Virus record (IMG/VR): IMGVR_UViG_3300014152_000001
Span: 32,001 to 96,000 of that record
From: a virus
DNA length: 64,000 nucleotides
Direction: 5' to 3' (one strand)
Positions 6,429 to 35,770 of this stretch are shown here, piece by piece. Positions within the stretch are counted from its first letter, which is position 1, and the number at the start of each line of letters is the position of its first letter. Under the pieces are notes generated by a model. The model was given only the letters and a program-made list of their open reading frames with translations. It was not told the DNA's origin and did no database searches. Made by a program: the position numbers and the translations under genes.

Positions 6429-6857
6429 ATGGAATACAAAACTTCTGAAGAGAAGAGAGCCTACCAAGCAGACTACGCCAAAACACATAAGGAAGAGAAA
6501 CAGGCTTACGATAGGAAGTATTGGAAAATCCGTTATGCTAAAAATAGCAAGCAATACTTGGAAAACAGAGCGAAAGCGACAAGAGAACGGAAACTACTTG
6601 TCCTAAGTCATTACAGTAGTAATCCGCCCAAGTGTGCTTGTCCACCTTGCGGAGAGACCATTATCGAATTTCTCTCAATAGACCATATTATCCCTATTGG
6701 TAATAAAGCGAGAGACAATCAACTAGGCACGCGACACGGAAGCAATCTCTACGGCTGGCTCATTAGACACAACTTTCCAGAGGGCTTCCAAGTGCTCTGT
6801 ATGAATTGCAACTTCGCCAAAGGACACTACGATAAATGTCCTCACGAGAGACTGTAG
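6429..6857 (+). CDS. HNH endonuclease
   Basis: SIDHII...FQVLCMNCN..CPH. Confidence 0.8.
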   Translation: MEYKTSEEKRAYQADYAKTHKEEKQAYDRKYWKIRYAKNSKQYLENRAKATRERKLLVLSHYSSNPPKCACPPCGETIIEFLSIDHIIPIGNKARDNQLGTRHGSNLYGWLIRHNFPEGFQVLCMNCNFAKGHYDKCPHERL

Positions 6858-6979
6858 GTTTAAATAGTCCTAACCCCTATCTCTACTCATGGTAAAGGAC
6901 AGTCTCGGCCACGAAGTCGAGTTTCGTGACTATTGGGATTAGAAAAGCCCTTATATAGTCGGCTGTCCAATTAAGTCTC

Positions 6980-9325
6980 ATGAGCAGTGATGGTGCTAGA
7001 CGACCTGAAGAGGCTTTCGGCAAGACGACTCCATATGCCACCTGTCCAATCTGCCACGCCTTCATGCTAACTGAAGAGTATGACAAACACATGGCTCAAA
7101 ATCACTCACAAGAACAACGAAACAAATATACCCCAAAAGATGAAGAGAGTGGACCACAGGGCCACTTCTATGGTGATGTCTGGTCGAAGTATGAGGCCAC
7201 ACAAAGTCCGGCTTATCAACTCACCCAAGACGAGTTGGACAAGATTACTAATGAAGCGTGGGAAGGAGAAGGTTGTGAAGATTGTCGAAGCATAATTCAA
7301 AGCACCGAGATGGATAAGAAGGGCAACTATGCCATCTATCCTACATCAAGTCAAGTCGGACACATGAGCGACCTCTTCGGATACCAAACCGAGCCATCCA
7401 TGCCTACCACTGGTTATCTAGACCCAGAAGACCCCAAATGGCAACAGTCGGTTGAGCACATCCAAGAGCGACAGAAGACCCCGAAAGGGGTAGGAACCTT
7501 TGGGCCACAGTCTGGAATGACGAGAGACGAACCCACTCGTGATGAATGGCAAGTGACCAGTTATCTAGACAGCGTTGGTGTGACCTATATCCATAAGATG
7601 AAGTTAGGAGAACTAGACTCTACAACAGAGAAGCCAAAGGTTGAGTATGACCTCTATCTTCCAGACCTAGTTATGGCCATCGAAACCTCACCGGGTTGGC
7701 ATGAGGGTGGGCCACAAGCAGGAAGATTTCCACAAGTAATTGAGAATGACCACTTCAAAAAGAACTTTGCTGAAGAGCATGGAATAGACTTGGTGAGTTT
7801 CGACCCTGCTCAGGGAACGGAAAAGTTTATCAACGAAACCCTAGTGCCCAAGTTGAGGGCTGTGGGTGTGAATGCCTTTGAAGTGCCTACAACAAAGAAC
7901 GAAGAAAAGGAGAGGCTGGTATGGTGTATGGATTGTGGTGGTCTCTTTGATGACAAACCATCTCTGAACACACACTTCCAACAGACTGGACATAGTTCCG
8001 TAGGCGAAGGGACGGTAGAGAAGTATGAAGAGTTTGAGAAGGGCAATCCCTTCAATCAGCAATACATCTACCGAGAAGAAGACACGCTCCCAACATCTTG
8101 GCTTGCTCCGGTCTTCAAGTATGAGGGCTATGGGAAGGGCGAAGAGGAAGGTGGTGGAAGATTCCCAGACCCCGCTAACCATATAATGGGACCGGGAGTT
8201 GAGGTCAAGAAATGTCCTCATGGTAATGGTGTCTTCGCTACTCGTGACTTCAAAGAAGGAGAACTAATTTCAAGTTTCAAATCCCCATTTGTAAAGGAAC
8301 TTCCCGACCCTGCTCGTGGATGGGCCACTCTAAGAGTGGGAGACCTGTGGTGGGAAGAGCCAGCATCAGGAGAAGAGGACGAATGGGCCAACTTCTTAGA
8401 CCATGAGAAGTCGCCTAACTCTGTCTTTGTCAACTTCAACTTTGATGAAGGGACGGGAGACCTTATGACGACCCGACCTATCAAAACAGGAGAGGAAGTC
8501 TACATCGATTACGGTGCATACTCACCAGAGAACATAGGCGATGTCAGCGAAGACTTCGCCCCAGAAGACCTACCCCCAGAAGTTGTTCCTGCGGTCCCAG
8601 AGACGACAACTCTACCACCCACAGAGCCAGAAAAGGACTTAGGACAGGAAACAGCAGGATACGATTGGGATTACAACGTGAAGTATCGAGAAAAGCCTAT
8701 TCTTGAAGAGCAGTCTGGAATCAACCAGAATATTCCGACTGGAATATATTCCAGAGTGGAACCTCTTGCCTTTGACCAGTCCCAAAACGTGCCCAGATAC
8801 CCAGAGCGTGGGAAGGTCAATACCATAGAACAAGAGAGTGGTGGTGAAGAGTTGGCGGCTGATAGTCACCTGTTCCAAGAACAAGAGGAAGGTGGAGTCT
8901 ACCTAGCCTGTCCGAAATGCACTGGCGGTGGCGGCTTCTACAATAGGAGAGGCGATAAATGGATTACCTGCCCAATGTGTGGTGGAACGGGTAGCGGAGA
9001 GAAGCAGTTCGATTGGCCTGAAGACGAGAGAGACACCAAAAACGAGGGACGATGGGACGCACCAACACCAGACAAACAGAATGAAGCCGAGAAGATGGCC
9101 TACTATCAGTTGGCTGACGAAACAGGAGACTACATAATGAAAGCAAGAGAAGACGGCTCTCTCACAACACCAGAAGCCGATGCTCTAATGGCTCTACAAA
9201 CTCAAGCCAAAGAAGCAGTATTAGTAGACAATCTGGAGAAGGCACAAGAAATACTGGCTAAAATGGCAGAACTTGTTACGACTAAACTGGGAGTTCAAGA
9301 CCTAGACGTTGAAGGACAGCAGTGA
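6980..9325 (+). CDS. Multidomain protein: Zn fingers, Vsr/DUF559-like nuclease, SET methyltransferase domain, DnaJ-type Zn finger
   Basis: YDLYLPDLVMAIE..WH (PD-D/ExK); GNGVFATRDFKEGE, NFLDHEKSPN, PIKTGEEVYIDY (SET); CPKCTGGG / CPMCGGTG. Confidence 0.75.
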   Translation: MSSDGARRPEEAFGKTTPYATCPICHAFMLTEEYDKHMAQNHSQEQRNKYTPKDEESGPQGHFYGDVWSKYEATQSPAYQLTQDELDKITNEAWEGEGCEDCRSIIQSTEMDKKGNYAIYPTSSQVGHMSDLFGYQTEPSMPTTGYLDPEDPKWQQSVEHIQERQKTPKGVGTFGPQSGMTRDEPTRDEWQVTSYLDSVGVTYIHKMKLGELDSTTEKPKVEYDLYLPDLVMAIETSPGWHEGGPQAGRFPQVIENDHFKKNFAEEHGIDLVSFDPAQGTEKFINETLVPKLRAVGVNAFEVPTTKNEEKERLVWCMDCGGLFDDKPSLNTHFQQTGHSSVGEGTVEKYEEFEKGNPFNQQYIYREEDTLPTSWLAPVFKYEGYGKGEEEGGGRFPDPANHIMGPGVEVKKCPHGNGVFATRDFKEGELISSFKSPFVKELPDPARGWATLRVGDLWWEEPASGEEDEWANFLDHEKSPNSVFVNFNFDEGTGDLMTTRPIKTGEEVYIDYGAYSPENIGDVSEDFAPEDLPPEVVPAVPETTTLPPTEPEKDLGQETAGYDWDYNVKYREKPILEEQSGINQNIPTGIYSRVEPLAFDQSQNVPRYPERGKVNTIEQESGGEELAADSHLFQEQEEGGVYLACPKCTGGGGFYNRRGDKWITCPMCGGTGSGEKQFDWPEDERDTKNEGRWDAPTPDKQNEAEKMAYYQLADETGDYIMKAREDGSLTTPEADALMALQTQAKEAVLVDNLEKAQEILAKMAELVTTKLGVQDLDVEGQQ

Positions 9326-9488
9326 AATGCCAGCATTTCCGGTTATTGAAAAATCCCTCACAATCGCATGACCCTACCTTGTCAATCTTGTTGTAGAAGA
9401 CATTATGCCAAATGTTTGAGTATCGTTTAGACTTAACTCTGGCGAAGACCAAATCACCATCTTGTAAAATTTCAACTACCTCAGACAT
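9282..9488 (-). CDS. SWIM zinc-finger protein
   Basis: SCDCEGFFNNRKCWH (CxCx(n)CxH). Confidence 0.75.
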   Translation of the reverse strand: MSEVVEILQDGDLVFARVKSKRYSNIWHNVFYNKIDKVGSCDCEGFFNNRKCWHFTAVLQRLGLELPV

Positions 9489-9996
9489 TGTGCCATCTCC
9501 CATAATACTCTTCTAACAATGGTTCAATAACTTCTCTAAGATGTTTATACCATCGCCCAACCTTTGCCTCATAAGCCATTTGACAACTGCCACAACAAGT
9601 TTCCAAGTCATCTGTCTTTCTTGAGCCATTAATTATAGCCCTATACAAATCAGTTCCAACTCTATCTTTAGTTCCACCACCATTCTTGTGATTGATGGTG
9701 AGCACAATAGGATTGGTTTCTCCACAATAAACACAACTCTTTCCAACAATTTCAAGTGCTCTCATCTTCACTTTCCATGTATGTCTATCTTGATATTCGG
9801 GATGGTTCTTGTTGAAGTTCTTCACATAAATCTGTCGTTTAGGCCAATTTCGCTTTGTTCGATTCACAGTATCAACACTGGTGCACATTTTACACTCTTT
9901 ACGATACCAGATTTGACCTTTTACACCAATACCATTAATGTAAAAATCTTCAACATTCTTTGTTCTACCACACTTTGAGCAAACTCTAGAAGTCAT
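9481..9996 (-). CDS. HNH-type endonuclease (divergent)
   Basis: CSKCG..CKMC; CVYCGE..TINHKNGGG..CCGSCQ. Confidence 0.7.
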   Translation of the reverse strand: MTSRVCSKCGRTKNVEDFYINGIGVKGQIWYRKECKMCTSVDTVNRTKRNWPKRQIYVKNFNKNHPEYQDRHTWKVKMRALEIVGKSCVYCGETNPIVLTINHKNGGGTKDRVGTDLYRAIINGSRKTDDLETCCGSCQMAYEAKVGRWYKHLREVIEPLLEEYYGRWHNV

Positions 9997-10530: not shown

Positions 10531-10833
10531 TCACTTCAACCCCAGATTGCGTTTAATACCCGCGATATAGACATCCAACAGAGAAGAGAAGACATTAGTG
10601 AAGGCATAGACCTCATTAGTGAAGGCATAGACCTCATTCAACTCTTTATGTGACCAGAACTCGCACTCAGATTTATGGGCTATTGGAAAGAGATACCGCA
10701 AAAGAGTGGCGAGGGCTGGCCTTGGAATATACATTGTTTCCGTGTAAGTAGGGAGCATGATTTTGTCCTTCTCAAAGTCTCCTGTCTCAAGGTCTTTGAC
10801 GATTGCATCAATACACTTTTGGCAGAGTTTCAT
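10531..10833 (-). CDS. Hypothetical protein with an internal 7-aa duplication
   Basis: Coupled to the uS2 stop; NEVYAFT twice. Confidence 0.55.
   Translation of the reverse strand: MKLCQKCIDAIVKDLETGDFEKDKIMLPTYTETMYIPRPALATLLRYLFPIAHKSECEFWSHKELNEVYAFTNEVYAFTNVFSSLLDVYIAGIKRNLGLK
10593..10634. repeat. Perfect 21-bp tandem duplication
   Basis: CATTAGTGAAGGCATAGACCT x2. Confidence 0.95.
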
Positions 10834-11519
10834 TTTTCCTCATCCTCTTCCTCCTTCTCCGGCATCTTAGTCTCAAAGTCCTCAATAGTGAGGGGTGTTT
10901 TAGTCATGGCATCAAATATCTCCTCATCTGCCTTTATCTTCTCAGAGTGAAGCAAGATAGACCTAGCCAAGAGATAGAAGACCGTGGCTATGGCCTTTGC
11001 GCCAGTGTTGTTGGCCGGAATGCAGAGGTCCAAATCCTCGAAAGTGGCGTTGGTGTTGCAGATGGCAATAACGGGGATACCAACGCTTCCGGCCTCTTGC
11101 ATGGCCCTTCGGTCTCCTTTTATGGCTTCTCCTATCTTCTTCGGTATGCCATTGGTAGGGTCGGAGACAATCAACACATTTGCATCAATGTAGTATTTCG
11201 ATTGAGAGTTTGTAAGACAACCCGGCATGAAGCGATGAAAGACGGTGGGTATGAGAGTGGCCTTCTCAAATGCCGTAAGAGCGTTCTCAAATCTCGCATC
11301 AGTGGCATAGAGCACAGCACCTTCGGTCTTGACTATGAACTTACCAGCCGTGTCAAGCCGAGTAAGGATGGCGTTCACATCCAAAATGGGATTGCCACTT
11401 GGAGCGATGCTAGAGACATACTGAGCCATGTCTTTAGTAACTGCTCCCTTAATGCCTAAGTGTATACCAGTGGCCTTTAGTGGCTCTTCTGTAAGGGTTT
11501 TAGGTAGGATATGACTCAT
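10830..11519 (-). CDS. rps2: Ribosomal protein uS2 homologue (archaeal type, divergent)
   Basis: GIHLG...TKDM, RFMPGCLTN, LIVSDP, AMQEA..VGIPVIAICNT, DLCIPANN.G.KAIATVFYLLAR, IEDFETK; colinear with archaeal uS2. Confidence 0.9.
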   Translation of the reverse strand: MSHILPKTLTEEPLKATGIHLGIKGAVTKDMAQYVSSIAPSGNPILDVNAILTRLDTAGKFIVKTEGAVLYATDARFENALTAFEKATLIPTVFHRFMPGCLTNSQSKYYIDANVLIVSDPTNGIPKKIGEAIKGDRRAMQEAGSVGIPVIAICNTNATFEDLDLCIPANNTGAKAIATVFYLLARSILLHSEKIKADEEIFDAMTKTPLTIEDFETKMPEKEEEDEEK

Positions 11520-12745
11520 TGTTTGCTTACCCCTACACATCTAACCAACTCGTCCAGTATGGCCTCTACATCGTTGGTGTGAGTCTTAGCACTGCCAGCA
11601 GGTTTCAATCCACCCCCTTCCATGATGGCAGGATTGGCACTTCTGAAGGCCTTGCCAATGTGGATTGTGCTGTCCCTTCCGCCCCTACCAGAGACATGAA
11701 CCCCATACTTAGGAATGGTGTTAATGACGAACCAAGTCTTATGGTTGGTGTTGGTAAACTTACTGCATAGTGCAGAACCCATGTTCCATTTGCTACTGAT
11801 GATGGTCACACCGAAGTCTGGGTAGTCTAGTTGGGTGTAGTTGCCCCGCTTCTCTACATCTCCCTTGTCCTTTCTGTAGTTCACAGTGAGTTCCAGAAGC
11901 ATCTTAGTGTTGGAGTTCTTTGGTGTTGGAGTGGTCGTTGGAAATACAGTCGGCTCCCAGAAGAGGTCGCCCTCAATCTTTTCCTTGTTGACCATCGCAT
12001 AGAAGTCTAGCCAATTAGGAATCTTCTCCATCTCTTTCATGGCTTCATAGCAGATGGGCGGGGCTTTGTTGAATATCATCCTTCGAGGATTGTGAAGCAA
12101 TTGGGCGTAGAATGCAAGAATGCTCCAATCGTAACTACTGTTCAGACTCTTGGAAGCAAGCAATCCCCGCATAGAAGGATGCTTGTTGAGGAGTTCTTGG
12201 AAGAGAGGGCCACCTTCTTTGGTCCCAGTTGCTACATCTCCTTCTAACCCTAGCAAGGCCCACTTCTCCATGTTGACTACCGACCATCCCATCCTCTTGG
12301 CAAATGCGTAAGAGATGCCAGTAGTGCAATTCTCGGTGGATGACTCATAGTAGAAGAAGGGGAGATTGGGGAAAGGAAACTTCCCTTGGAGATTGGCTAA
12401 AGTCTTTGCATACTCTCCATAGGCTTCTGCGGTTTCAACCAAAAGGTCTGGCGGGTGGTTGTCCAAGATGATGACATTGATGCCACTGGCCAAAAATGCT
12501 ACTGCATAGTTCAGCATCTCTTGACCGCTTCCAAGGTCTAGAATGAAGACCGTTGCTGGCTTCAAGTCCATTATGTCTGAGACATTCTTATCCGTCATCC
12601 CGAAGACATCCCAATCTTGCCACATAATAGTGTGGGTAGCCTTGGGAGCATTCAGGGAGATGGCATTATGGATGATGCGACAGGCGCACATCCCATCGGT
12701 ATCTTCATCGCTGAAGATTACGGTATCCTGATTTGCTTTACTCAT
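11516..12745 (-). CDS. DHH/DHHA1 phosphoesterase (RecJ/GAN-like)
   Basis: DEDTDG, ILDLGS, ILDNH, GLEGDV, VSGRG, GGGLKPAG motifs. Confidence 0.8.
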   Translation of the reverse strand: MSKANQDTVIFSDEDTDGMCACRIIHNAISLNAPKATHTIMWQDWDVFGMTDKNVSDIMDLKPATVFILDLGSGQEMLNYAVAFLASGINVIILDNHPPDLLVETAEAYGEYAKTLANLQGKFPFPNLPFFYYESSTENCTTGISYAFAKRMGWSVVNMEKWALLGLEGDVATGTKEGGPLFQELLNKHPSMRGLLASKSLNSSYDWSILAFYAQLLHNPRRMIFNKAPPICYEAMKEMEKIPNWLDFYAMVNKEKIEGDLFWEPTVFPTTTPTPKNSNTKMLLELTVNYRKDKGDVEKRGNYTQLDYPDFGVTIISSKWNMGSALCSKFTNTNHKTWFVINTIPKYGVHVSGRGGRDSTIHIGKAFRSANPAIMEGGGLKPAGSAKTHTNDVEAILDELVRCVGVSKQ

Positions 12746-12911
12746 GACTATAGGTATCCTCTCTAACCTATATAAAGATTCTAATGGTTTAACCAGTAGA
12801 GGCAACATCTAATATGGACAAAGTGCCACGCCCAATTCCATTTGTCCCCAACCTTGCATCTAGTCAATTTACCACACTCTTTGTTCTTATAGAGACATCT
12901 CAGTGACTTCA

Positions 12912-13568
12912 TTAGATGCTCCTACGCAAACCTTTGATGTAAGGCAGTAGTCTTTCGTGGGCCTTCTCCAGAAGGATGACATCTCGCTTGTTGTGGTCTT
13001 GGATGTAGTCTCTAGCCTTCGGACTGAGCAAGGCTTGAGTCCAGATGTCGGGGTCTAGGTGCGTCTTAAGGTCTCCAAAGCCCAAGAGACTGCCTGCGTT
13101 CTCCAGTCTATTTCTGCTCATCTTCAGTTTGGACTTCACAACATAGTAGAGGTCGTGATGGATGATTGAGCCATACTCTGGGAATGGCACATTCCACTTC
13201 AGAGCACGAGTTCTCATGAAGGGGATGTCGTAACCTGTTCCGTAGTAGGTCACTACCATGTCGAATTTGAGCATATCCTCAATGCACTGAATCACTAGAG
13301 GCTTGTCCAACCTCAGTGCATCAATGTCCTTCTGTTGAATCACGTTTGAATAGATGATGTCTTTGCCTCTTACTTTGAAAGCGTAACTCAGAAGGATGCC
13401 AAAGTCTGCGTCAAGATTGGTCGCTTCGATGTCAAAGTAACCGATTCTGAAGTCGTTTTCGGTATTCGCCACAAACTCGTCCCAACATTGTGGGTGCTCC
13501 GTTCCACGATGACCGTGAACGCAATGCCAATGTTCGGCAACTATCAGTAATTTCTTTGGGTCTTTCAT
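12912..13568 (-). CDS. RNase H-fold 3'-5' exonuclease (DEDD, YprB/PolB-exo-like)
   Basis: YFDIEAT, YYGTGYDIPF, HHDLY, HNKRDV. Confidence 0.8.
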   Translation of the reverse strand: MKDPKKLLIVAEHWHCVHGHRGTEHPQCWDEFVANTENDFRIGYFDIEATNLDADFGILLSYAFKVRGKDIIYSNVIQQKDIDALRLDKPLVIQCIEDMLKFDMVVTYYGTGYDIPFMRTRALKWNVPFPEYGSIIHHDLYYVVKSKLKMSRNRLENAGSLLGFGDLKTHLDPDIWTQALLSPKARDYIQDHNKRDVILLEKAHERLLPYIKGLRRSI

Positions 13569-14290
13569 ATCACTACCATACCCTTCGTTTCTACTCCTAA
13601 TAAGTGTTTGGCTTTACCCAGTCTCTCTGGAGTTCCACAATCCATGTAAGGACATTTGGCCTTGACTACCTTGAAATCGGTTCCTTTCAACATCATCAAT
13701 GAAACAACATCTGCCATAGTTCCTCTTTGGAATTGGCCATACTTTGAGAGTTGTTTCACCGTAGTCTTCATCATATCTGTGAACACCCAACCTTCTGAAT
13801 GAACGTTAAGCGTCCCACAAACGTAGGGCGGAGTCTTGATTTTTCCTTTCCAATCGAGAGTTAGAGCAGGTCGTCCAAGCATATCACCCTTCGCCACCAC
13901 TATTGCGTGTTCTTGTTCCATCAACTCATCCATGAAGTTGAAGTTCTTGAAGTAGGAGTCGATGGCTGAGAAGACGACCTCAGTAATCACACTGTGCGTC
14001 AGATACACAGGAACGTTACTGGTTATCCAAAGGGCCGGATTGTTCACCTTCTGAGCGTCTACATAGATACCAAGATTCTTATCCTTGAAAGTAGTATCCA
14101 TGTTATCCAAACGCCACTTGGCCCACCAACCTTGATTCCACTTGCTATGGACTATCCACACCGTATCCGCAGGCACGGCATCGATAATCCTCTCAAAGAG
14201 AGGAAGTCCATCAACAGAGAGCAGATGCTTCTGCACTGCTTCGGCTGAATAGCCACCAGCCAACAAAACTAAGATTCTCTTCTCACTCAT
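13565..14290 (-). CDS. Sugar-phosphate nucleotidyltransferase-like (GT-A fold, degenerate)
   Basis: LLAGGY...KHLLSVDGLPL; YMDCGTPE. Confidence 0.65.
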   Translation of the reverse strand: MSEKRILVLLAGGYSAEAVQKHLLSVDGLPLFERIIDAVPADTVWIVHSKWNQGWWAKWRLDNMDTTFKDKNLGIYVDAQKVNNPALWITSNVPVYLTHSVITEVVFSAIDSYFKNFNFMDELMEQEHAIVVAKGDMLGRPALTLDWKGKIKTPPYVCGTLNVHSEGWVFTDMMKTTVKQLSKYGQFQRGTMADVVSLMMLKGTDFKVVKAKCPYMDCGTPERLGKAKHLLGVETKGMVVI

Positions 14291-14475
14291 CTCAGTTGAC
14301 CCTTTATGAATCGTGCCTTCTGAATTGCTCTGAATAAGACATTGTTGACTTCTTCATTAGCCGCTATTTGAGCCGTCCTTTCGTCTATTCCGTTTTTCAC
14401 CATATAGTCGTAGAGAAGACGAAATATTGTGTTGGCCTCTTCCTTGGTAGGATAACTTCCAACTGATTTTTCCAT
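14287..14475 (-). CDS. Hypothetical protein
   Basis: TATA upstream; coupled to the next gene. Confidence 0.5.
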   Translation of the reverse strand: MEKSVGSYPTKEEANTIFRLLYDYMVKNGIDERTAQIAANEEVNNVLFRAIQKARFIKGQLR

Positions 14476-14509
14476 ACCTACCCCTACTACCCTATCCTAT
14501 TTAAAGATT

Positions 14510-15406
14510 CTATGCTTCCTTGAGCATATTCATTCCTTTACGAACCGTCCAAAAGTCGCTGGCGAGAGTTGGGTCGGACAGATAGGCGTAAGGTATCGTG
14601 AAATACCCTTCTTGCCCCCAGTCTGTTCCCCAACTGTTACGGCAGATGAATCTCTGTGAGGCATCGTTATATCCGAGACACATGACAGCATGACCACCCA
14701 CTGTATAGTCATTCGACCCCGGCATCGGCACGACTCCTGTTACTTCAACTGAGAGACTCTCAAAACTGTTGTAGACGGTGAAACCATAGACGAAAGGAAA
14801 CCCCGCGTCTAAACACGCTTTCATGTCAGCCAGTGTGGTGATACTGAAGTATTGGGTAATCTCGTGATTCGTCCCTTCAGTATAGGCATTGGTTGGCGGC
14901 TGGACAGCGAACTTGCCGATGTCATATGCCCATGTTGCTTCGTAACACGACCCTTGCTGTGCAAGAGTCTTCGCCCCATCACGAAGTTCTGCCCCAGAAT
15001 CAGTGTTTACTGTTCCTTCGATAACCCTCTCATTATAGTAGATAAAGAGTCGACTGAAATTGAGTGCTCCCGTCTGCTCCTGAAGCCCGTCCTTAATCTC
15101 AAGGAAGGCTAGTGCCCCGGCCCAAGCATTCGCAGTGCAACTTCCTAAGTCTCCTTGGTCTACGATTGGTGAATCCAGACACCGCATATCCACTACACTA
15201 TTATCAGGCGGTGTTGGCGATGGATTCGGTTTTGGGTCGAAAATGCTCATGAGCCAATTCCAGAAGTCCTGCCATATTCCTTTCTCAACAGTCTCAACCT
15301 TCATAATGTCCTGTCCTGCGTGATAGATGAAATCATTAGGGTCGTAATGGTCTTTCTTCCAACCACTGAGATTATGTTTCTTGGGTTCTTTCTTAGTTTC
15401 TGACAT
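14510..15406 (-). CDS. Papain-family (C1A) cysteine peptidase
   Basis: DQGDLGSCTANA, GGHAV, RNSWGTDWG catalytic motifs. Confidence 0.92.
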   Translation of the reverse strand: MSETKKEPKKHNLSGWKKDHYDPNDFIYHAGQDIMKVETVEKGIWQDFWNWLMSIFDPKPNPSPTPPDNSVVDMRCLDSPIVDQGDLGSCTANAWAGALAFLEIKDGLQEQTGALNFSRLFIYYNERVIEGTVNTDSGAELRDGAKTLAQQGSCYEATWAYDIGKFAVQPPTNAYTEGTNHEITQYFSITTLADMKACLDAGFPFVYGFTVYNSFESLSVEVTGVVPMPGSNDYTVGGHAVMCLGYNDASQRFICRNSWGTDWGQEGYFTIPYAYLSDPTLASDFWTVRKGMNMLKEA

Positions 15407-28373: not shown

Positions 28374-29324
28374 CTACAATGACCTTAGACCTGTTAATTG
28401 CACGACACTCTCCGGGTATGTGATAACCGGGGCATAGCGAGCAGTGATAACAATGTCTATCGAATCGAAAGTAGGTTGAGGCCAGACATCCACACTGATG
28501 GGTCTCTTCGTTGCGAAGTAACCCAACGGTGCATATGAGGCTGAATAGTTGCTACCAGCCGCGGCAAGGACGTATGCGCGTCCATCGAAGCCGCTGTTTG
28601 GTAACAGTGGAGCCTGTGGGATGTTCGGGGTGACTATCTGCTTCAGTCCATACAACTGAGGTGCTGAAACCACTGTTCCAGTTCCCTGAGCGTATACGGG
28701 CTGTCCGTAGAAGAGTAGGGCGGCAAACTGAGGTATCCTTGACAGGTCTTGATGAGCCATTGGGTTCATCGCAATCGTGTCAGGTTCCAAAGCAAGGTTC
28801 TGTATCACTTGCTTCGCCTGAGTTATGTCGTTAATCCCTATTGTTCCACCATACGCAGTTGTCGTCCCATCCATGAACACTGAAGCCCCTGTAACGGGCT
28901 GTGCGATGCCGTGACCAGCCGGGGCATTGAGTGCTTTCTCAACGTCTTGGTCGATGGTCATAACGACCCGTCTCGCGGCTCGTTTCAGTTGGTCTTCTAC
29001 AATGTTCACTATTTGGTCTTCAATCAACTCTCTAGTGACTCGGACTCTCATACCCACCTTGTAAGGTGTAACGGTAATCGAGTCGTAAGGTGTGAAGTCA
29101 GCCATAATCTCGGCTCCCTCTGCCGTCTTTCCTATGACGGCTGTAGCACGAGCACCCTTCTGCTTCGGTATCGAAGCAGTCGCTCCAACCTTGATGAAGA
29201 AGTCCTGAAGTAGAGGCTTCAATGCCAAGTTAGGCATTGTGAGTTCTACTATCCTCTTCGCCAGTGCTGGATAGAATAGAGCACCTGTGTTAACTATTGG
29301 GAACTGTTCACGAGTCATAGCCAT
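28374..29324 (-). CDS. Major capsid protein (HK97 fold)
   Basis: 316 aa; TAEGAEI, YKVGMRVRVTRELIED, IAMNP, LYGLKQIVTPNIP; last gene of the protease-scaffold-decoration operon. Confidence 0.85.
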   Translation of the reverse strand: MAMTREQFPIVNTGALFYPALAKRIVELTMPNLALKPLLQDFFIKVGATASIPKQKGARATAVIGKTAEGAEIMADFTPYDSITVTPYKVGMRVRVTRELIEDQIVNIVEDQLKRAARRVVMTIDQDVEKALNAPAGHGIAQPVTGASVFMDGTTTAYGGTIGINDITQAKQVIQNLALEPDTIAMNPMAHQDLSRIPQFAALLFYGQPVYAQGTGTVVSAPQLYGLKQIVTPNIPQAPLLPNSGFDGRAYVLAAAGSNYSASYAPLGYFATKRPISVDVWPQPTFDSIDIVITARYAPVITYPESVVQLTGLRSL

Positions 29325-29784: not shown

Positions 29785-30300
29785 TTAACCCGACAGTAGA
29801 CCCAGTTCCTTGAAGCGGCTTGAAGCACCTGTAATCTCCTTCCAGTAGTCTGGGAACTCCGCAGAGGCACCAAAGCCAGCGAGTGGACTCGTCTCTTCCT
29901 TGACCGCCCCAACGTTACCCTTTCCGGTAACTTCGGGAGCCTTGGCAGACGCTTCCCTTGCTTTCTTGGCTTCCTCTACCTTGCTCTTGACTTCCTGAAG
30001 TCTCGACTTCAGTTCTTCAAGTTTCTTGCGCTTAACTTCCTCTTCTTCCTTCTTTTTCTTTTGGGCTTCCTCGTTTTCCTCGCTCTTTGCTTCAGATGCT
30101 CTCCTCAAGGCAATCCTCTGAGACAGCAACGCGGCTCTTTTACCGCGAAGGTCTTGCTGTTCCAGTTTTATGTTGACTTCCTTGATGATGGACATCAGAC
30201 CATCGAGTTTGGATTCGAGAGAACCCATCTGCTTCACAATTTGGTCATAACTGAGAGCCTTGCCCTCAGATATATCACCAGAAGGTGCGACAGTAGACAT
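29785..30300 (-). CDS. Scaffold-like coiled-coil protein
   Basis: Long E/K-rich helix between protease and MCP. Confidence 0.6.
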   Translation of the reverse strand: MSTVAPSGDISEGKALSYDQIVKQMGSLESKLDGLMSIIKEVNIKLEQQDLRGKRAALLSQRIALRRASEAKSEENEEAQKKKKEEEEVKRKKLEELKSRLQEVKSKVEEAKKAREASAKAPEVTGKGNVGAVKEETSPLAGFGASAEFPDYWKEITGASSRFKELGLLSG

Positions 30301-32632: not shown

Positions 32633-32929
32633 TTACTCAACCGCATCTACTTTGAGGGTTCCGTAGCGACCAATGTTTAATTGCAACACGCCCTTGTAAG
32701 TGCTTGTGTATCCGTTGGAGATGGCTACTAGAGAATCCACTGCGACCTTACCGATGTCATCGCCCCAGAGCACCAACTTAATCTCGCCTGTCGCATCCTT
32801 CAGTTGGGCGTTGGCTACTGTTGTCGTGCCGCCTGCTCTAAGGTTGACCGTCCTCGTATCTTCTTTGCTGACGATGAGGCCAGCAACGTCTACTTTCGTT
32901 ACCTTATCCTTCAAGTCTTTGATGTCCAT
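32633..32929 (-). CDS. ssb: Single OB-fold ssDNA-binding protein (TACK-type SSB)
   Basis: IKDLK...LKDATGEIKLVLWGD...ISNGYTSTYKGVLQLNIGRYG. Confidence 0.88.
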   Translation of the reverse strand: MDIKDLKDKVTKVDVAGLIVSKEDTRTVNLRAGGTTTVANAQLKDATGEIKLVLWGDDIGKVAVDSLVAISNGYTSTYKGVLQLNIGRYGTLKVDAVE

Positions 32930-32952
32930 ATACCAGTAGTATCTATTGTCGG

Positions 32953-33321
32953 CTATATAAAGGTTCTGGCTTTGGCGTTAATCTCATTCATACCTTTGCC
33001 AGTTTTGAGGTTATGTGAAATGCTTCTGTGTAACTTTGCAGGTATGTAGATGGCAACTGAAGGAGTTATATGATGGAGCACTGCGCCTCTAAAGTGTTTG
33101 TTGAGAATAGTAGTAGTTGGGAGTTCTCTGTTTCGTCTGTGTTGCTCAACCCGTACAATCGCTCTCACTTTCTCTGGATAGTCTGCTCGATATTGTCTCA
33201 TGTAGTTCCGCATATACGCTTTGGAGTTCTTGTGCTTCTCTGGATGAGCCTTATTCCATGCGGTGCTCCAAGCAATCTGCTTCTTTCGATACTTCAGATA
33301 CTTGGCTCTATTGTAACCCAC
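32953..33321 (-). CDS. HNH-like endonuclease (LHH.TP type)
   Basis: LHHITPSVAIYIPAKLHRSISH; paralogue of 34721. Confidence 0.6.
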   Translation of the reverse strand: MGYNRAKYLKYRKKQIAWSTAWNKAHPEKHKNSKAYMRNYMRQYRADYPEKVRAIVRVEQHRRNRELPTTTILNKHFRGAVLHHITPSVAIYIPAKLHRSISHNLKTGKGMNEINAKARTFI

Positions 33322-33554
33322 AGCCTATATAGGGAATCTCCCCTATATAAGCGTAAAGGTTTAGATACTTTTCATTGTTTCCCATGTCATCTTGTCTTCG
33401 GTGGTATAGCCGCATACTTGGCACAACTTTTGCTGGCCGTTGCTAGGGCTTTCATAGGGTTCTAACTCTCCCTCTTTGCACTTTGGGCACATCTCAACCA
33501 TATCTCATAGGTAAGGTAGGAATCCTTATTAAGTCTTCTCTACCAAGGGTGGGT

Positions 33555-33854
33555 ATGACCAATCTATTGGAACGTGAGAGACGGGTAAAAAGGATTCTGA
33601 AGAAGTTGGGACTGGATACTCGCTTAGACCTTGATGTTAGGCTCACAGACAAGATTAAGACTGGTCAAGCCCTTACCATCGTTGAGATTAATCCCGACCT
33701 TAGTGACAAAGAGTTTGACGAGACTTTTGCTCACGAACTACTTCATTACTTAGGTCTTGAACACAACGAAACCACTAGACAACTCAGTTACTCGTCAACC
33801 GACCCCAAGAAGGACATTCTAAGCAAGACGTTGGCTAAGATGGTGAATGAGTAA
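33555..33854 (+). CDS. Zincin-like HExxH protein
   Basis: INPDL...TFAHELLHYLG. Confidence 0.65.
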   Translation: MTNLLERERRVKRILKKLGLDTRLDLDVRLTDKIKTGQALTIVEINPDLSDKEFDETFAHELLHYLGLEHNETTRQLSYSSTDPKKDILSKTLAKMVNE

Positions 33855-34720: not shown

Positions 34721-35173
34721 TTAAGGATTTGTTACCCATTCCATTACTTTGGCGTTAATCTCTCTCATGCCCTCTCCTGTCTTGAGGACATGGAAGACAG
34801 ACCTATGTAAGTCCTTTGGAATGTAGATAGCCACAGAAGGAGTCATATGGTGAAGATGTGCCCCCTTAAAGTGTTCATTGAGAATGGTATCGGTTGGAAG
34901 GTCTCTTGCCCTTCTATTCCTCTCAAGTCTACCAAGTTCTCGCATTCTCTCTAAGTGGTCTCTTCGATATTGCCTCATATAATCTCTCATATACTTTCTA
35001 TGAGTAAGATGAGTCTTGTGATAAGAAGCACGATATTCTTTTGGATGCTCCTTCCGCCATTTTTGCGTTCTCTTAACATCGCATGATTTACAAATGTGTT
35101 TCGGCCATCTGCGTTGAGCCTCAGACCAATTATCGTTGGTTAGTTCTATACCACAAACAATACAAGTAGACAC
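34721..35173 (-). CDS. HNH-like endonuclease (LHH.TP type) with N-terminal Zn finger
   Basis: CIVCG..NW..CKSC; LHHMTPSVAIYIPKDLH. Confidence 0.6.
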   Translation of the reverse strand: MSTCIVCGIELTNDNWSEAQRRWPKHICKSCDVKRTQKWRKEHPKEYRASYHKTHLTHRKYMRDYMRQYRRDHLERMRELGRLERNRRARDLPTDTILNEHFKGAHLHHMTPSVAIYIPKDLHRSVFHVLKTGEGMREINAKVMEWVTNP

Positions 35174-35324: not shown

Positions 35325-35702
35325 TCAAGGAGCAACCGCCTCACCGCTTGGTAGTTTCATCTTATCCAAGATAATGGCCTTCATATTGGCCATGAAGAAC
35401 TTCCAGTTGAACTTGTTAACGTGAATGATTCTCCATCCCATTGCCGCAAGTTCGACATCTCGAATTTTGTCCCGCTTCTTTGCCTCTACCGAGAAGTGAT
35501 GCTTCAGTCCATCATACTCGACTCCGACTTTTAGATGTGGGATTCCTACATCCACCCATCGCTTCTTTCGTCTGCCCACAATCGGAACTGGATAATTTAG
35601 AATCGAAAGAGGATAAGGGTAAAGCATTCGGATATAGTGACACAATCTATTTTGCTGGATGCTTGTGGGCGGATGCCATCTTCGTCTCCATCTCCTTGGC
35701 AT
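35325..35702 (-). CDS. Vsr/DUF559-like PD-(D/E)xK endonuclease
   Basis: VDVGIPHLKVGVEYDGLKHH...DKIRDVELAAMGWRIIHV. Confidence 0.8.
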   Translation of the reverse strand: MPRRWRRRWHPPTSIQQNRLCHYIRMLYPYPLSILNYPVPIVGRRKKRWVDVGIPHLKVGVEYDGLKHHFSVEAKKRDKIRDVELAAMGWRIIHVNKFNWKFFMANMKAIILDKMKLPSGEAVAP

Positions 35703-35770
35703 AGATAGAAGATAGACTCCCATCTATATAAACCCTCAACTTTATAGGAAGGGCGTTACATAGTAAGGGC

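Follow-up and report, generated by a model that had tools for sequence, protein, structure and literature searches.

The locus examined here raises the question of how a SET domain came to lie in the middle of a viral protein that also bears a nuclease fold and zinc-finger motifs, and of what such a protein might do. The stretch of DNA that was analysed, hereafter the window, is 64,000 nucleotides (nt) long and comprises bases 32001-96000 of IMG/VR record IMGVR_UViG_3300014152_000001, a virus genome labelled G000 in this study; the gene in question occupies window positions 6980-9325 and encodes a protein of 781 amino acids (aa). An earlier reading of the nucleotide sequence by itself (the sequence-only reading) had described the product as a multidomain viral protein combining a SET methyltransferase, a Vsr-like nuclease, and several zinc fingers, and this description held up, as the protein contains two C2H2-pattern fingers, a Vsr-like nuclease fold, a SET domain, and a CxxCxGxG zinc ribbon. 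Our principal finding is that the SET domain began as a mini-SET gene of the virus clade itself, which was relocated in frame into the middle of the nuclease protein in the G000 lineage alone.

The identification of the SET domain draws on profile searches and on predicted structure. Pfam model PF00856 matched aa 415-512 over its full length (1-105) with an expect value (E) of 9.3e-11 and 42.5 bits (cut-off 22.4), and it scored 46.3 bits in a search of the whole genome, in which the domain inside the 781-aa gene was the sole SET of G000. The sequence-only reading had placed the domain at about 8190-8525, a position matched by this hit and by a core at nt ~8192-8548. By sequence, the best PDB match of the 781-aa protein was the chlorovirus vSET (E 0.012). 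Sixty-two relatives of the SET were found among 1.84 billion representatives, giving an alignment of 63 sequences including the target, and an AlphaFold model of aa 390-545 built from the 62 relatives had a mean predicted local distance difference test (pLDDT) score of 84.6, with the core above 90. Searching this model with Foldseek returned 344 PDB matches at E ≤ 0.001, with SET methyltransferases throughout among the matches listed and a Foldseek probability of 1.00 against MLL1, SETD8, SET7/9, NSD1, and vSET; vSET, one of the best matches by fold, gave a template modelling (TM) score of 0.81 and a root-mean-square deviation of 2.8 over 112 columns. The sequence-only reading had named the lack of a predicted SET fold as a ground for its refutation; the fold was predicted with high confidence, and the SET domain of the 781-aa protein is genuine. 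Its characteristic residues are G415/G417, W457/W458, W469, D474-H475-E476, P479-N480, and Y511 (the Tyr of the ELxF/YDY motif), and because the GxG, the WW/W aromatics, the DH..PN, and the catalytic Tyr511 are all kept, this part of the protein is probably an active S-adenosylmethionine (SAM)-dependent protein-lysine methyltransferase.

The sequence-only reading had also remarked that the NHS motif was altered to DHE. The substitution is present, with D474-H475-E476 in place of the usual NHS, but it is not a private alteration of this protein, as the Asp is a conserved hallmark of a whole SET clade. Among the 63 aligned SETs, the Asn position of the NH motif is held by Asp in 28 and by Asn in 32; 58 of them retain the His, 60 the Asn of PN, 60 the catalytic Tyr, and 59 and 55 the first and second Gly of GxG, respectively. 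Further traits common to the Asp-bearing SETs are a CPH that precedes GxG, a pair of Trp (WW), and a Trp ahead of the motif; the target and its nearest cellular relatives have the signature CPHGxG...WSNF(L/I)DH..PN...Y in common. A maximum-likelihood tree unites the Asp-bearing SETs in a single split (support 99/93) of 24 DH sequences and one NH sequence. The target SET falls in a group of six sequences (support 100/99; 50-66% identity to the target); short metagenomic contigs are the source of three of these six, and the other three match SET open reading frames (ORFs) of related viral contigs in IMG/VR. The Glu at position 476, usually Ser, was seen only in the target SET and in one other sequence. 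Because the Asp has been conserved over the long term beside all the other catalytic motifs, the DH site is likely functional, and this conservation argues for a working active site and not for decay.

The rest of the DH clade consists of stand-alone proteins of 120-140 aa, with 35-45% identity for the nearest cellular ones. Two members carry names, both belonging to metagenome-assembled genomes (MAGs) of Nitrososphaerota (Thaumarchaeota) on contigs of 73 and 613 kb. One of these mini-SETs sits among genes for cysteine/methionine metabolism, the mevalonate pathway, and dehydrogenases, with no viral genes near; a provirus origin was considered for it and ruled out by the housekeeping neighbours and the absence of viral homologues nearby. 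For at least one DH mini-SET, the gene is part of the chromosome of a Nitrososphaerota MAG. Cells rarely have the DH type, which was found in 2 of the 301 genomes sampled from the phylum of the one MAG that was searched. In the Nitrososphaerota MAG, the DH-type mini-SET (contig L021, 4001-4393) lies about 2 kb from homocysteine/SAM-cycle-type genes (18-2109, +), its neighbours including genes for a cystathionine-beta-synthase-like protein, a Cys/Met-metabolism pyridoxal phosphate (PLP) enzyme, and a class I methyltransferase; this neighbourhood may or may not be meaningful.

The route by which the SET entered the protein can be followed in relatives of both. A family search of 5.8 billion clustered proteins recovered 21 homologues of the 781-aa protein, 507-1011 aa in length, whose contigs reach 110 kb. 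Common to these homologues are aa ~10-310 (50-68% identity) and the aa 573-636 peptide, and in some of them the C-terminal region as well; between these conserved parts they carry differing zinc-ribbon modules in varying order, and in P0013, P0016, and P0018 the finger that is N-terminal in the target is placed after the nuclease. A SET domain is present in none of the 21. The family seems to belong to the core genes of a single ~105-kb virus clade, because the ribosomal protein uS2 of these viruses is also found on contigs of the same sizes as those bearing family members (105,335, 110,754, 103,081, and 40,196 bp, among others).

The genome of a sister virus (G001), complete at 105,335 bp and bearing terminal repeats, is collinear with G000, and identity between the two is 62% for the N-terminal part of the target, 73% for the large terminase (TerL) and also for the DNA polymerase of family B (PolB), 85% for the capsid protein, and 50-53% for the genes flanking the target. 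The G001 orthologue (671 aa) lies between the same neighbours, aligns over aa 11-304 and 549-636 of the target, and then ends; it has no SET, no zinc ribbon, and no helical tail. G001 instead has a stand-alone SET gene of 171 aa (G001 80018-80533), 22 kb from the orthologue. Homology of the target to the free SET gene extends from aa 390 to ~535, that is, over the whole length of the stand-alone gene. The fusion is lineage-specific, because the 21 homologues are SET-less and the sister genome keeps a free SET at the old locus.

Related SET loci were located on eight IMG/VR contigs (L005-L012) by a search with the six-sequence SET alignment and by tblastn with the cassette; a scan of viral contigs with a single SET sequence had found nothing. 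The position of the SET gene is identical in all eight, between a homologue of the gene at G000 65855-66343 and a gene for an oligonucleotide-binding (OB)-fold protein resembling single-stranded DNA-binding proteins (SSBs). In G000, the corresponding slot is occupied by a 122-aa ORF of a multi-copy family (window 32953-33321, -), which may be a mobile gene that displaced the SET; a second copy of this family lies at window 34721-35173 (-) and a homologue at G001 14328-14771, and the family has no Pfam match. The SSB/replication protein A (RPA)-like gene of G000 (98 aa; window 32633-32929, -) stands between the former SET slot and the protease-scaffold-capsid genes, an unusual location for an SSB.

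The SET is stand-alone in two of the eight contigs and in the other six is fused to an N-terminal SAM decarboxylase, the decarboxylase part of which scores above the NCBIfam equivalog cut-off (TIGR03330, E 9e-24). These fusions are found at L007 7150-7941 (+) and on L008-L012 (e.g., L009 7563-8384), and the self-cleavage site of their decarboxylase part is Gln-Ser, where Glu-Ser is usual. To our knowledge, no SAM-decarboxylase-SET fusion has been described; neither G000 nor G001 encodes a SAM decarboxylase. In the metagenomic relative P0026, the EGRWD motif and helical tail known from the target come after the SET. The clade thus has four SET architectures: free, joined to SAM decarboxylase, joined to the helical tail, and inside the nuclease/zinc-finger protein. 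The stand-alone SET at L006 7235-7771 has a TAG stop at an otherwise invariant Trp (TGG to TAG), and because as many as 43 contigs have matching half-proteins of 77-79 aa on record, a widespread population carries a SET that is either broken or recoded.

The fusion does not appear to be an artefact of assembly. An identical protein is encoded on two contigs, the longest of 107,074 bp, a third contig of 5,258 bp has a 653-aa call of it, and the content of guanine plus cytosine (GC) is even along the gene; an assembly chimera was ruled out by the occurrence of the gene in three assemblies, in frame and with uniform GC, and the letter-for-letter copies on two contigs together with the shorter call on the third make misassembly very unlikely. 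One TATA box lies upstream of the gene and the pattern TTWWATA is absent from the + strand within 6980-9325, so the protein is presumably made as one unit. Searched by tblastn against 50,697 GenBank phage records, the 781-aa protein had no match, and NCBIfam holds no family for it. The protein as a whole is strongly acidic (net charge -73; isoelectric point (pI) 4.5), and the acidic linkers noted in the sequence-only reading were confirmed, with net charges of -7 over aa 341-404 and -18 over aa 524-640. Adaptation of a halophile was ruled out as the cause, the median pI of the viral proteome being 7.8; the acidity is specific to this protein and fits a role in which it would bind basic partners.

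The N-terminal part of the protein is constant in the family. A whole-protein AlphaFold model made from the 21 homologues is confident at aa 78-305 and 699-770, with pLDDT of 80-91 for aa 80-135, and residues from F133 to R187 are nearly invariant across the homologues. The sequence-only reading had proposed a Vsr-like PD-(D/E)xK domain at about 7530-7870; the domain was recovered at 7529-7879 by PHROG 9084 and by a match of fold, and the likeness to Vsr is borne out at the level of fold by a VIA-align Z of 8.0 to the DNA-bound Vsr structure (1cw0). PHROG 9084, annotated as a homing endonuclease, matched with E 2.3e-8, and the homing/HNH endonuclease families PHROG 559 and 3339 matched as well. 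In VIA-align, aa 184-297 gave Z values of 8.8 to the catalytic domain of the homing endonuclease I-Bth0305I (3r3p; 95/98 residues), 8.2 to the endonuclease-like protein 3hrl (88/94), and the above 8.0 to Vsr (114 residues); these values are middling, and the other matches at that level are helical bundles and one ribosomal-protein chain. Foldseek with the whole-protein model yielded weak matches only, structures of the Vsr/I-Bth0305I/3hrl type among them, and look-alikes in the structure atlas are small phage nucleases, some annotated as DUF559 or AbaSI-like.

Nuclease residues invariant in the 21 homologues are T186, E189, W190, E222, D224, E235, S237, W240, H241, D257, and K260, of which E222, D224, E235, H241, D257, and K260 form the pattern that an active metal-dependent nuclease would show. 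By comparison of motifs, and not by residue-level superposition, the acidic and His residues may correspond to D51/H69 of Vsr; the target has GWH where Vsr has FWH, and its T..E helix start is as in DUF559. The domain differs from Vsr and DUF559 proteins in having a Ser after E235-x (not Asp/Lys), a conserved N-terminal extension of 100 aa, and its fusion to fingers and a SET. A separate small nuclease-like gene lies at window 35325-35723 (-), with matches to MTES_1575 (E 1e-7) and DUF559 (E 0.0016); homologues of it at 53-71% identity are found near the SET locus of sister viruses, and it has no pairwise similarity to the nuclease domain of the 781-aa protein.

The zinc motifs announced in the sequence-only reading fared less evenly. 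The C2H2 pattern is present twice, but the Pfam zf-C2H2_2 score is below cut-off (17.6 bits against 26.9); finger 1 is conserved in the G001 orthologue. The module containing finger 2 (aa 306-351, window 7895-8032) has 54% identity to the C-terminus of the G001 orthologue of a HerA-like ATPase, encoded at G001 (L025) 11916-14342 (-), and this recurrence indicates that zinc-finger modules move between unrelated proteins of the clade. Of the proposed DnaJ-type CxxCxGxG pair, the two motifs stand (C644 and C664) and the family name does not, the DnaJ cysteine-rich model giving no match at E ≤ 10. A DnaJ cysteine-rich domain was accordingly rejected, with two repeats in place of four and no profile match, in favour of a single zinc ribbon; the region has weak matches to Pfam Lar/Zn-ribbon and to PHROG models and is modelled as beta-hairpins at a pLDDT of ~60.

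Within the acidic linker that precedes this ribbon, the peptide at aa 573-636 has 72% identity to G001 amid unalignable flanking sequence, at a pLDDT below 50. Its core, aa 599-622 (window 8774-8845), reads D-Q-S-Q-N-x-P-R-F/Y-P-E-R-G-K-V-N-T-I, with D599, Q602, P605, P608, G611, V613, and N614 invariant in all 21 family members, and judging from this conservation is probably a binding/docking or a processing/cleavage motif. The short motifs Y-R-E-E/K and P-I-L-E-E repeatedly precede modules in both G000 and G001. The three-helix tail recurs after the SET in P0026 and in the SET-less family members P0003, P0009, and P0020; its structural matches are generic helical bundles only, from which no function was drawn.

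A viral genome and an archaeal host, which the sequence-only reading had implied, were both upheld, the former outright and the latter as very probable. G000 is 105,748 bp long, has direct terminal repeats, and is rated complete; among its products are a major head protein of HK97 type (window 28374-29324), a scaffold-like protein (window 29785-30300), a weakly supported prohead protease, TerL, a weak portal match, and PolB, and the head protein, scaffold-like protein, terminase, and portal match mark it as a head-tailed virus. Compared with GenBank phages, its terminase is at best only ~26% identical to those of Bacillus phages, and G000 is therefore without a cultured relative. Its uS2 is of the archaeal/eukaryotic type (E 1e-38 to TIGR01012 against 6e-13 to the bacterial model) and is conserved, at 48-80% identity, across numerous contigs of this virus clade; outside the viral copies, the nearest named uS2 proteins are those of Nitrososphaerota and Bathyarchaeia MAGs, at 35-39% identity. 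The RecJ-like DHH protein of G000 has an archaeal model as its best match. TTWWATA boxes number 58 in the window against 26 expected, about a twofold excess, and lie mostly 22-27 nt 5' of start codons, the layout of archaeal promoters with leaderless mRNAs. Judged by these sequence features, the host is very probably an archaeon and a probable member of the Thermoproteota (Bathyarchaeia or Nitrososphaerota). HNH/endonuclease VII-like genes stand on both sides of the 781-aa gene (window 6429-6857, +, and 9481-9996, -), and many paralogues of them are spread over G000 and G001, a heavy colonisation by homing-type endonuclease genes.

Table 1. Features of the 781-aa gene and related elements, with positions in the window.
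Feature	Position	Strand	Basis
TATA-like box TTATATA, probable archaeal promoter of leaderless mRNA	6951-6957	+	23 nt 5' of ATG
Uninterrupted complete gene, 781 aa (P0001)	6980-9325	+	ORF translation
C2H2-pattern zinc finger 1, C22-x2-C25-x11-H37-x4-H42	7043-7105	+	pattern; PHROG 10717, E 0.0036
Small alpha/beta domain, aa 78-135 (C99/C102/H128), and highly conserved segment, aa 136-183	7211-7528	+	pLDDT; homologue columns
Vsr/DUF559-like PD-(D/E)xK-type endonuclease fold, aa 184-300	7529-7879	+	PHROG 9084; VIA-align; invariant columns
C2H2-pattern zinc finger 2, C316-x2-C319-x12-H332-x5-H338	7925-7993	+	pattern; Pfam zf-C2H2_2, E 0.0047
SET cassette, aa 390-535	8147-8584	+	end-to-end homology to stand-alone SET gene of related viruses
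SET core, aa 405-523	8192-8548	+	Pfam; AlphaFold; Foldseek
Family-conserved peptide, aa 573-636, in predicted disordered acidic linker	8696-8887	+	homologue columns
Zinc ribbon, two CxxCxGxG motifs (C644, C647, C664, C667)	8909-8980	+	sequence pattern
C-terminal three-helix bundle, aa 699-770, EGRWD motif before it	9074-9289	+	pLDDT 84-93
Ribosomal protein uS2, archaeal/eukaryotic type	10830-11540	-	TIGR01012, E 1e-38
Ancestral SET slot	32930-33854	-	synteny with eight related contigs; no SET in G000

As to what the fused protein does, the explanation that we propose, and to which we would assign an even chance, is that of a modular nuclease/finger protein with an inserted mini-SET that would act at DNA on a DNA-bound protein. 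The constant N-terminal part (aa 1-310), with its C2H2 finger, small conserved domain, and Vsr/DUF559-like endonuclease, is followed by exchangeable modules linked by acidic disordered linkers; the zinc fingers and the nuclease would bring the SET to DNA, where it would methylate a basic DNA-bound protein (a chromatin protein of the host or a DNA-binding protein of the virus), and binding or cutting of DNA would fall to the nuclease part.

The nearest characterised counterpart of the catalytic part is vSET of chlorovirus PBCV-1 (A612L; PDB 1n3j and 3kma), a minimal viral SET that methylates histone H3 at K27. The target SET is likewise virus-encoded and limited to a minimal core (~115 aa) that lacks zinc clusters of the pre-SET or post-SET kind, but it is only ~25% identical to vSET and has DH in place of NH, extra conserved Trp residues, and CPH before GxG; vSET is moreover a free protein of 119 aa from a giant algal virus, whereas the target SET is embedded in a 781-aa protein of a head-tailed and probably archaeal virus. 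The mini-SETs of Nitrososphaerota bear the same DH signature and are single-domain proteins, unlike the target. In PRDM proteins, a PR/SET domain is accompanied by arrays of C2H2 fingers that bring it to DNA, an arrangement analogous to that of the target with homology limited to the SET fold. SETMAR, which joins a SET to a transposase nuclease (PMC8704517), resembles the target in architecture only and by analogy, the type of nuclease, the order of the parts, and their origin being different. Go1-SET of the archaeon Methanosarcina mazei methylates the DNA-associated chromatin protein MC1-alpha (PMC3980110); with vSET as the viral precedent, this speaks for host chromatin proteins, the target suggested in the sequence-only reading, as one candidate.

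Several observations weigh against the proposed explanation. In the SET, the canonical Asn is replaced by Asp474 and the Ser that follows the His by Glu476. Both C2H2 fingers are modelled at low confidence, and the nuclease domain, at pI 4.8, is acidic too, an unexpected property in a DNA binder. The Pfam models Vsr, DUF559, and MTES_1575 gave no match to the 781-aa protein at E ≤ 10, nor did a profile of the 21-member family match PDB sequences at that threshold, and because these profiles are silent, the label Vsr-like denotes a resemblance of fold and motif and not family membership. The fusion is known from one virus only, and the SETs of the clade therefore do not need to cooperate with the nuclease in order to function. 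Finally, the ancestral position of the SET beside the head genes makes virion or other viral targets as plausible as chromatin, and viral targets or delivery in the virion are equally defensible with host chromatin as the object of the SET. The most pointed version, an archaeal-virus chromatin writer whose SET, tethered via nuclease and fingers and possibly delivered with the capsid, would methylate host histones or nucleoid proteins and thereby silence or reprogram the host genome, seems to us improbable.

The same ancestral position lends itself to a different account, namely, that the SET methylates viral proteins, such as the SSB-like protein, the scaffold, or the capsid protein, and that its fusion to a nuclease is incidental. 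In all eight related contigs, whatever the state of fusion, the SET lies directly upstream of the SSB-like and head-assembly genes and is co-directional with the downstream small gene, protease, scaffold, second small gene, and capsid protein. Adjacency of genes in viruses is weak evidence of function, however, and in G000 the SET left this position yet was retained, and the closest cellular mini-SET sits among housekeeping genes without viral partners; we consider this account rather unlikely.

Also unlikely, and compatible with the proposed explanation in that both could be true together, is a role as a packaged and injected effector, a polyvalent protein in the manner of T4 Alt or vSET, the acidic linkers of which might be cut by the prohead protease and which would enter the cell together with the DNA and act on host proteins as infection begins. 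Two enzyme domains on one polypeptide with long acidic disordered linkers would suit such a role, and the conserved peptide at aa 599-622, in a disordered linker, could be a targeting or cleavage motif; in the eight related contigs, the SET heads the SSB-like/protease/scaffold/capsid cluster. A published account (PMC5512222) sets out the concept of polyvalent proteins and reports that Alt is packaged, and the target resembles the proteins described there in uniting unrelated enzymatic and zinc-ribbon modules that are shuffled between relatives. It departs from them in that scans with Pfam and PHROG found no MuF, zincin peptidase, ArdC-N, portal, or other hub domain, that neither SET nor Vsr is mentioned among the domains listed in PMC5512222, and that the virus is probably archaeal. 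The gene in G000 has no packaging context, being ~20 kb from the head genes and under a promoter of its own. Furthermore, at E ≤ 0.05 the rest of G000 has no paralogue of any part of the protein, which leaves a capsid-targeting tail shared within that genome without support.

Equally doubtful is an incidental origin of the fusion, without joint function, in a rearrangement driven by endonucleases: an N-terminal part that is, or formerly was, a homing endonuclease would have received the SET cassette in its variable region after a mobile ORF had displaced the SET from its own locus, and the SET would work as it does when free-standing. The HNH endonuclease genes on both sides, the multi-copy ORF in the former SET slot, the shuffling of modules such as C2H2 fingers and three-helix tail between the clade's proteins, and the identity of the closest structure as a homing endonuclease, with small phage nucleases as look-alikes, are what this account would lead one to expect. 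The N-terminal 300 aa, on the other hand, are syntenic and about as conserved as the two flanking genes (62% against 50-53%, with 73% for core genes such as TerL and PolB) and not sporadic in the manner of homing genes, and the insertion falls exactly in frame between conserved modules and was kept in three assemblies.

That the SET is instead a pseudo-enzyme or binding module, or a non-canonical user of SAM (by sequestering it against SAM-dependent host defences or by taking decarboxylated SAM), is decidedly improbable: the replacement of Asn by Asp in the NH motif and of Ser by Glu in the target, the relatives fused to SAM decarboxylase on six viral contigs, and the stop at the invariant Trp of an abundant relative, in which the gene would be dispensable, speak for it, but all of the clade, its free-standing cellular members included, retains the catalytic Tyr, GxG, His, and PN, as would be expected of an active lysine methyltransferase, G000 and G001 are without SAM decarboxylase, and an Asp, like the Asn, could still act as the acceptor of a hydrogen bond. 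Since the decarboxylase fusions tie the clade to SAM chemistry, a small chance is left that DH-type SETs use SAM or decarboxylated SAM in a non-canonical reaction.

The bare presence of a SET in a tailed virus is already on record as annotation, and SETs are well known in giant viruses. Foldseek of the target SET against viral models (BFVD) returned four entries named SET domain containing protein from uncultured Caudovirales phage (E 5e-8 to 8e-5), which are 128-263 aa long and 11-24% identical to the target, the architecture of the target being absent among those listed. The papers searched on SETs in archaeal or prokaryotic viruses included none that describes the domain from a virus of archaea or studies the function of a phage SET, and the DH clade, its sharing between Nitrososphaerota cells and this virus clade, its four architectures, and the nuclease-finger-SET fusion appear to be undescribed so far. 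Lysine methylation of archaeal chromatin proteins is known, and we know of no archaeal virus that has been shown to manipulate it.

The locus provides testable material in the form of a DH-type SET clade common to archaeal cells and viruses, with four natural architectures and a fusion event dated between two sister genomes, and the modular nuclease family is an uncharacterised core gene of a large and undescribed clade of archaeal viruses. Were viral SSB or capsid proteins the targets of the SET, a new kind of virion maturation step would be at hand; were host histones or nucleoid proteins the targets, the protein would be an archaeal counterpart of chlorovirus vSET, and epigenetic takeover of the host would extend from the giant viruses of eukaryotes to the viruses of archaea.

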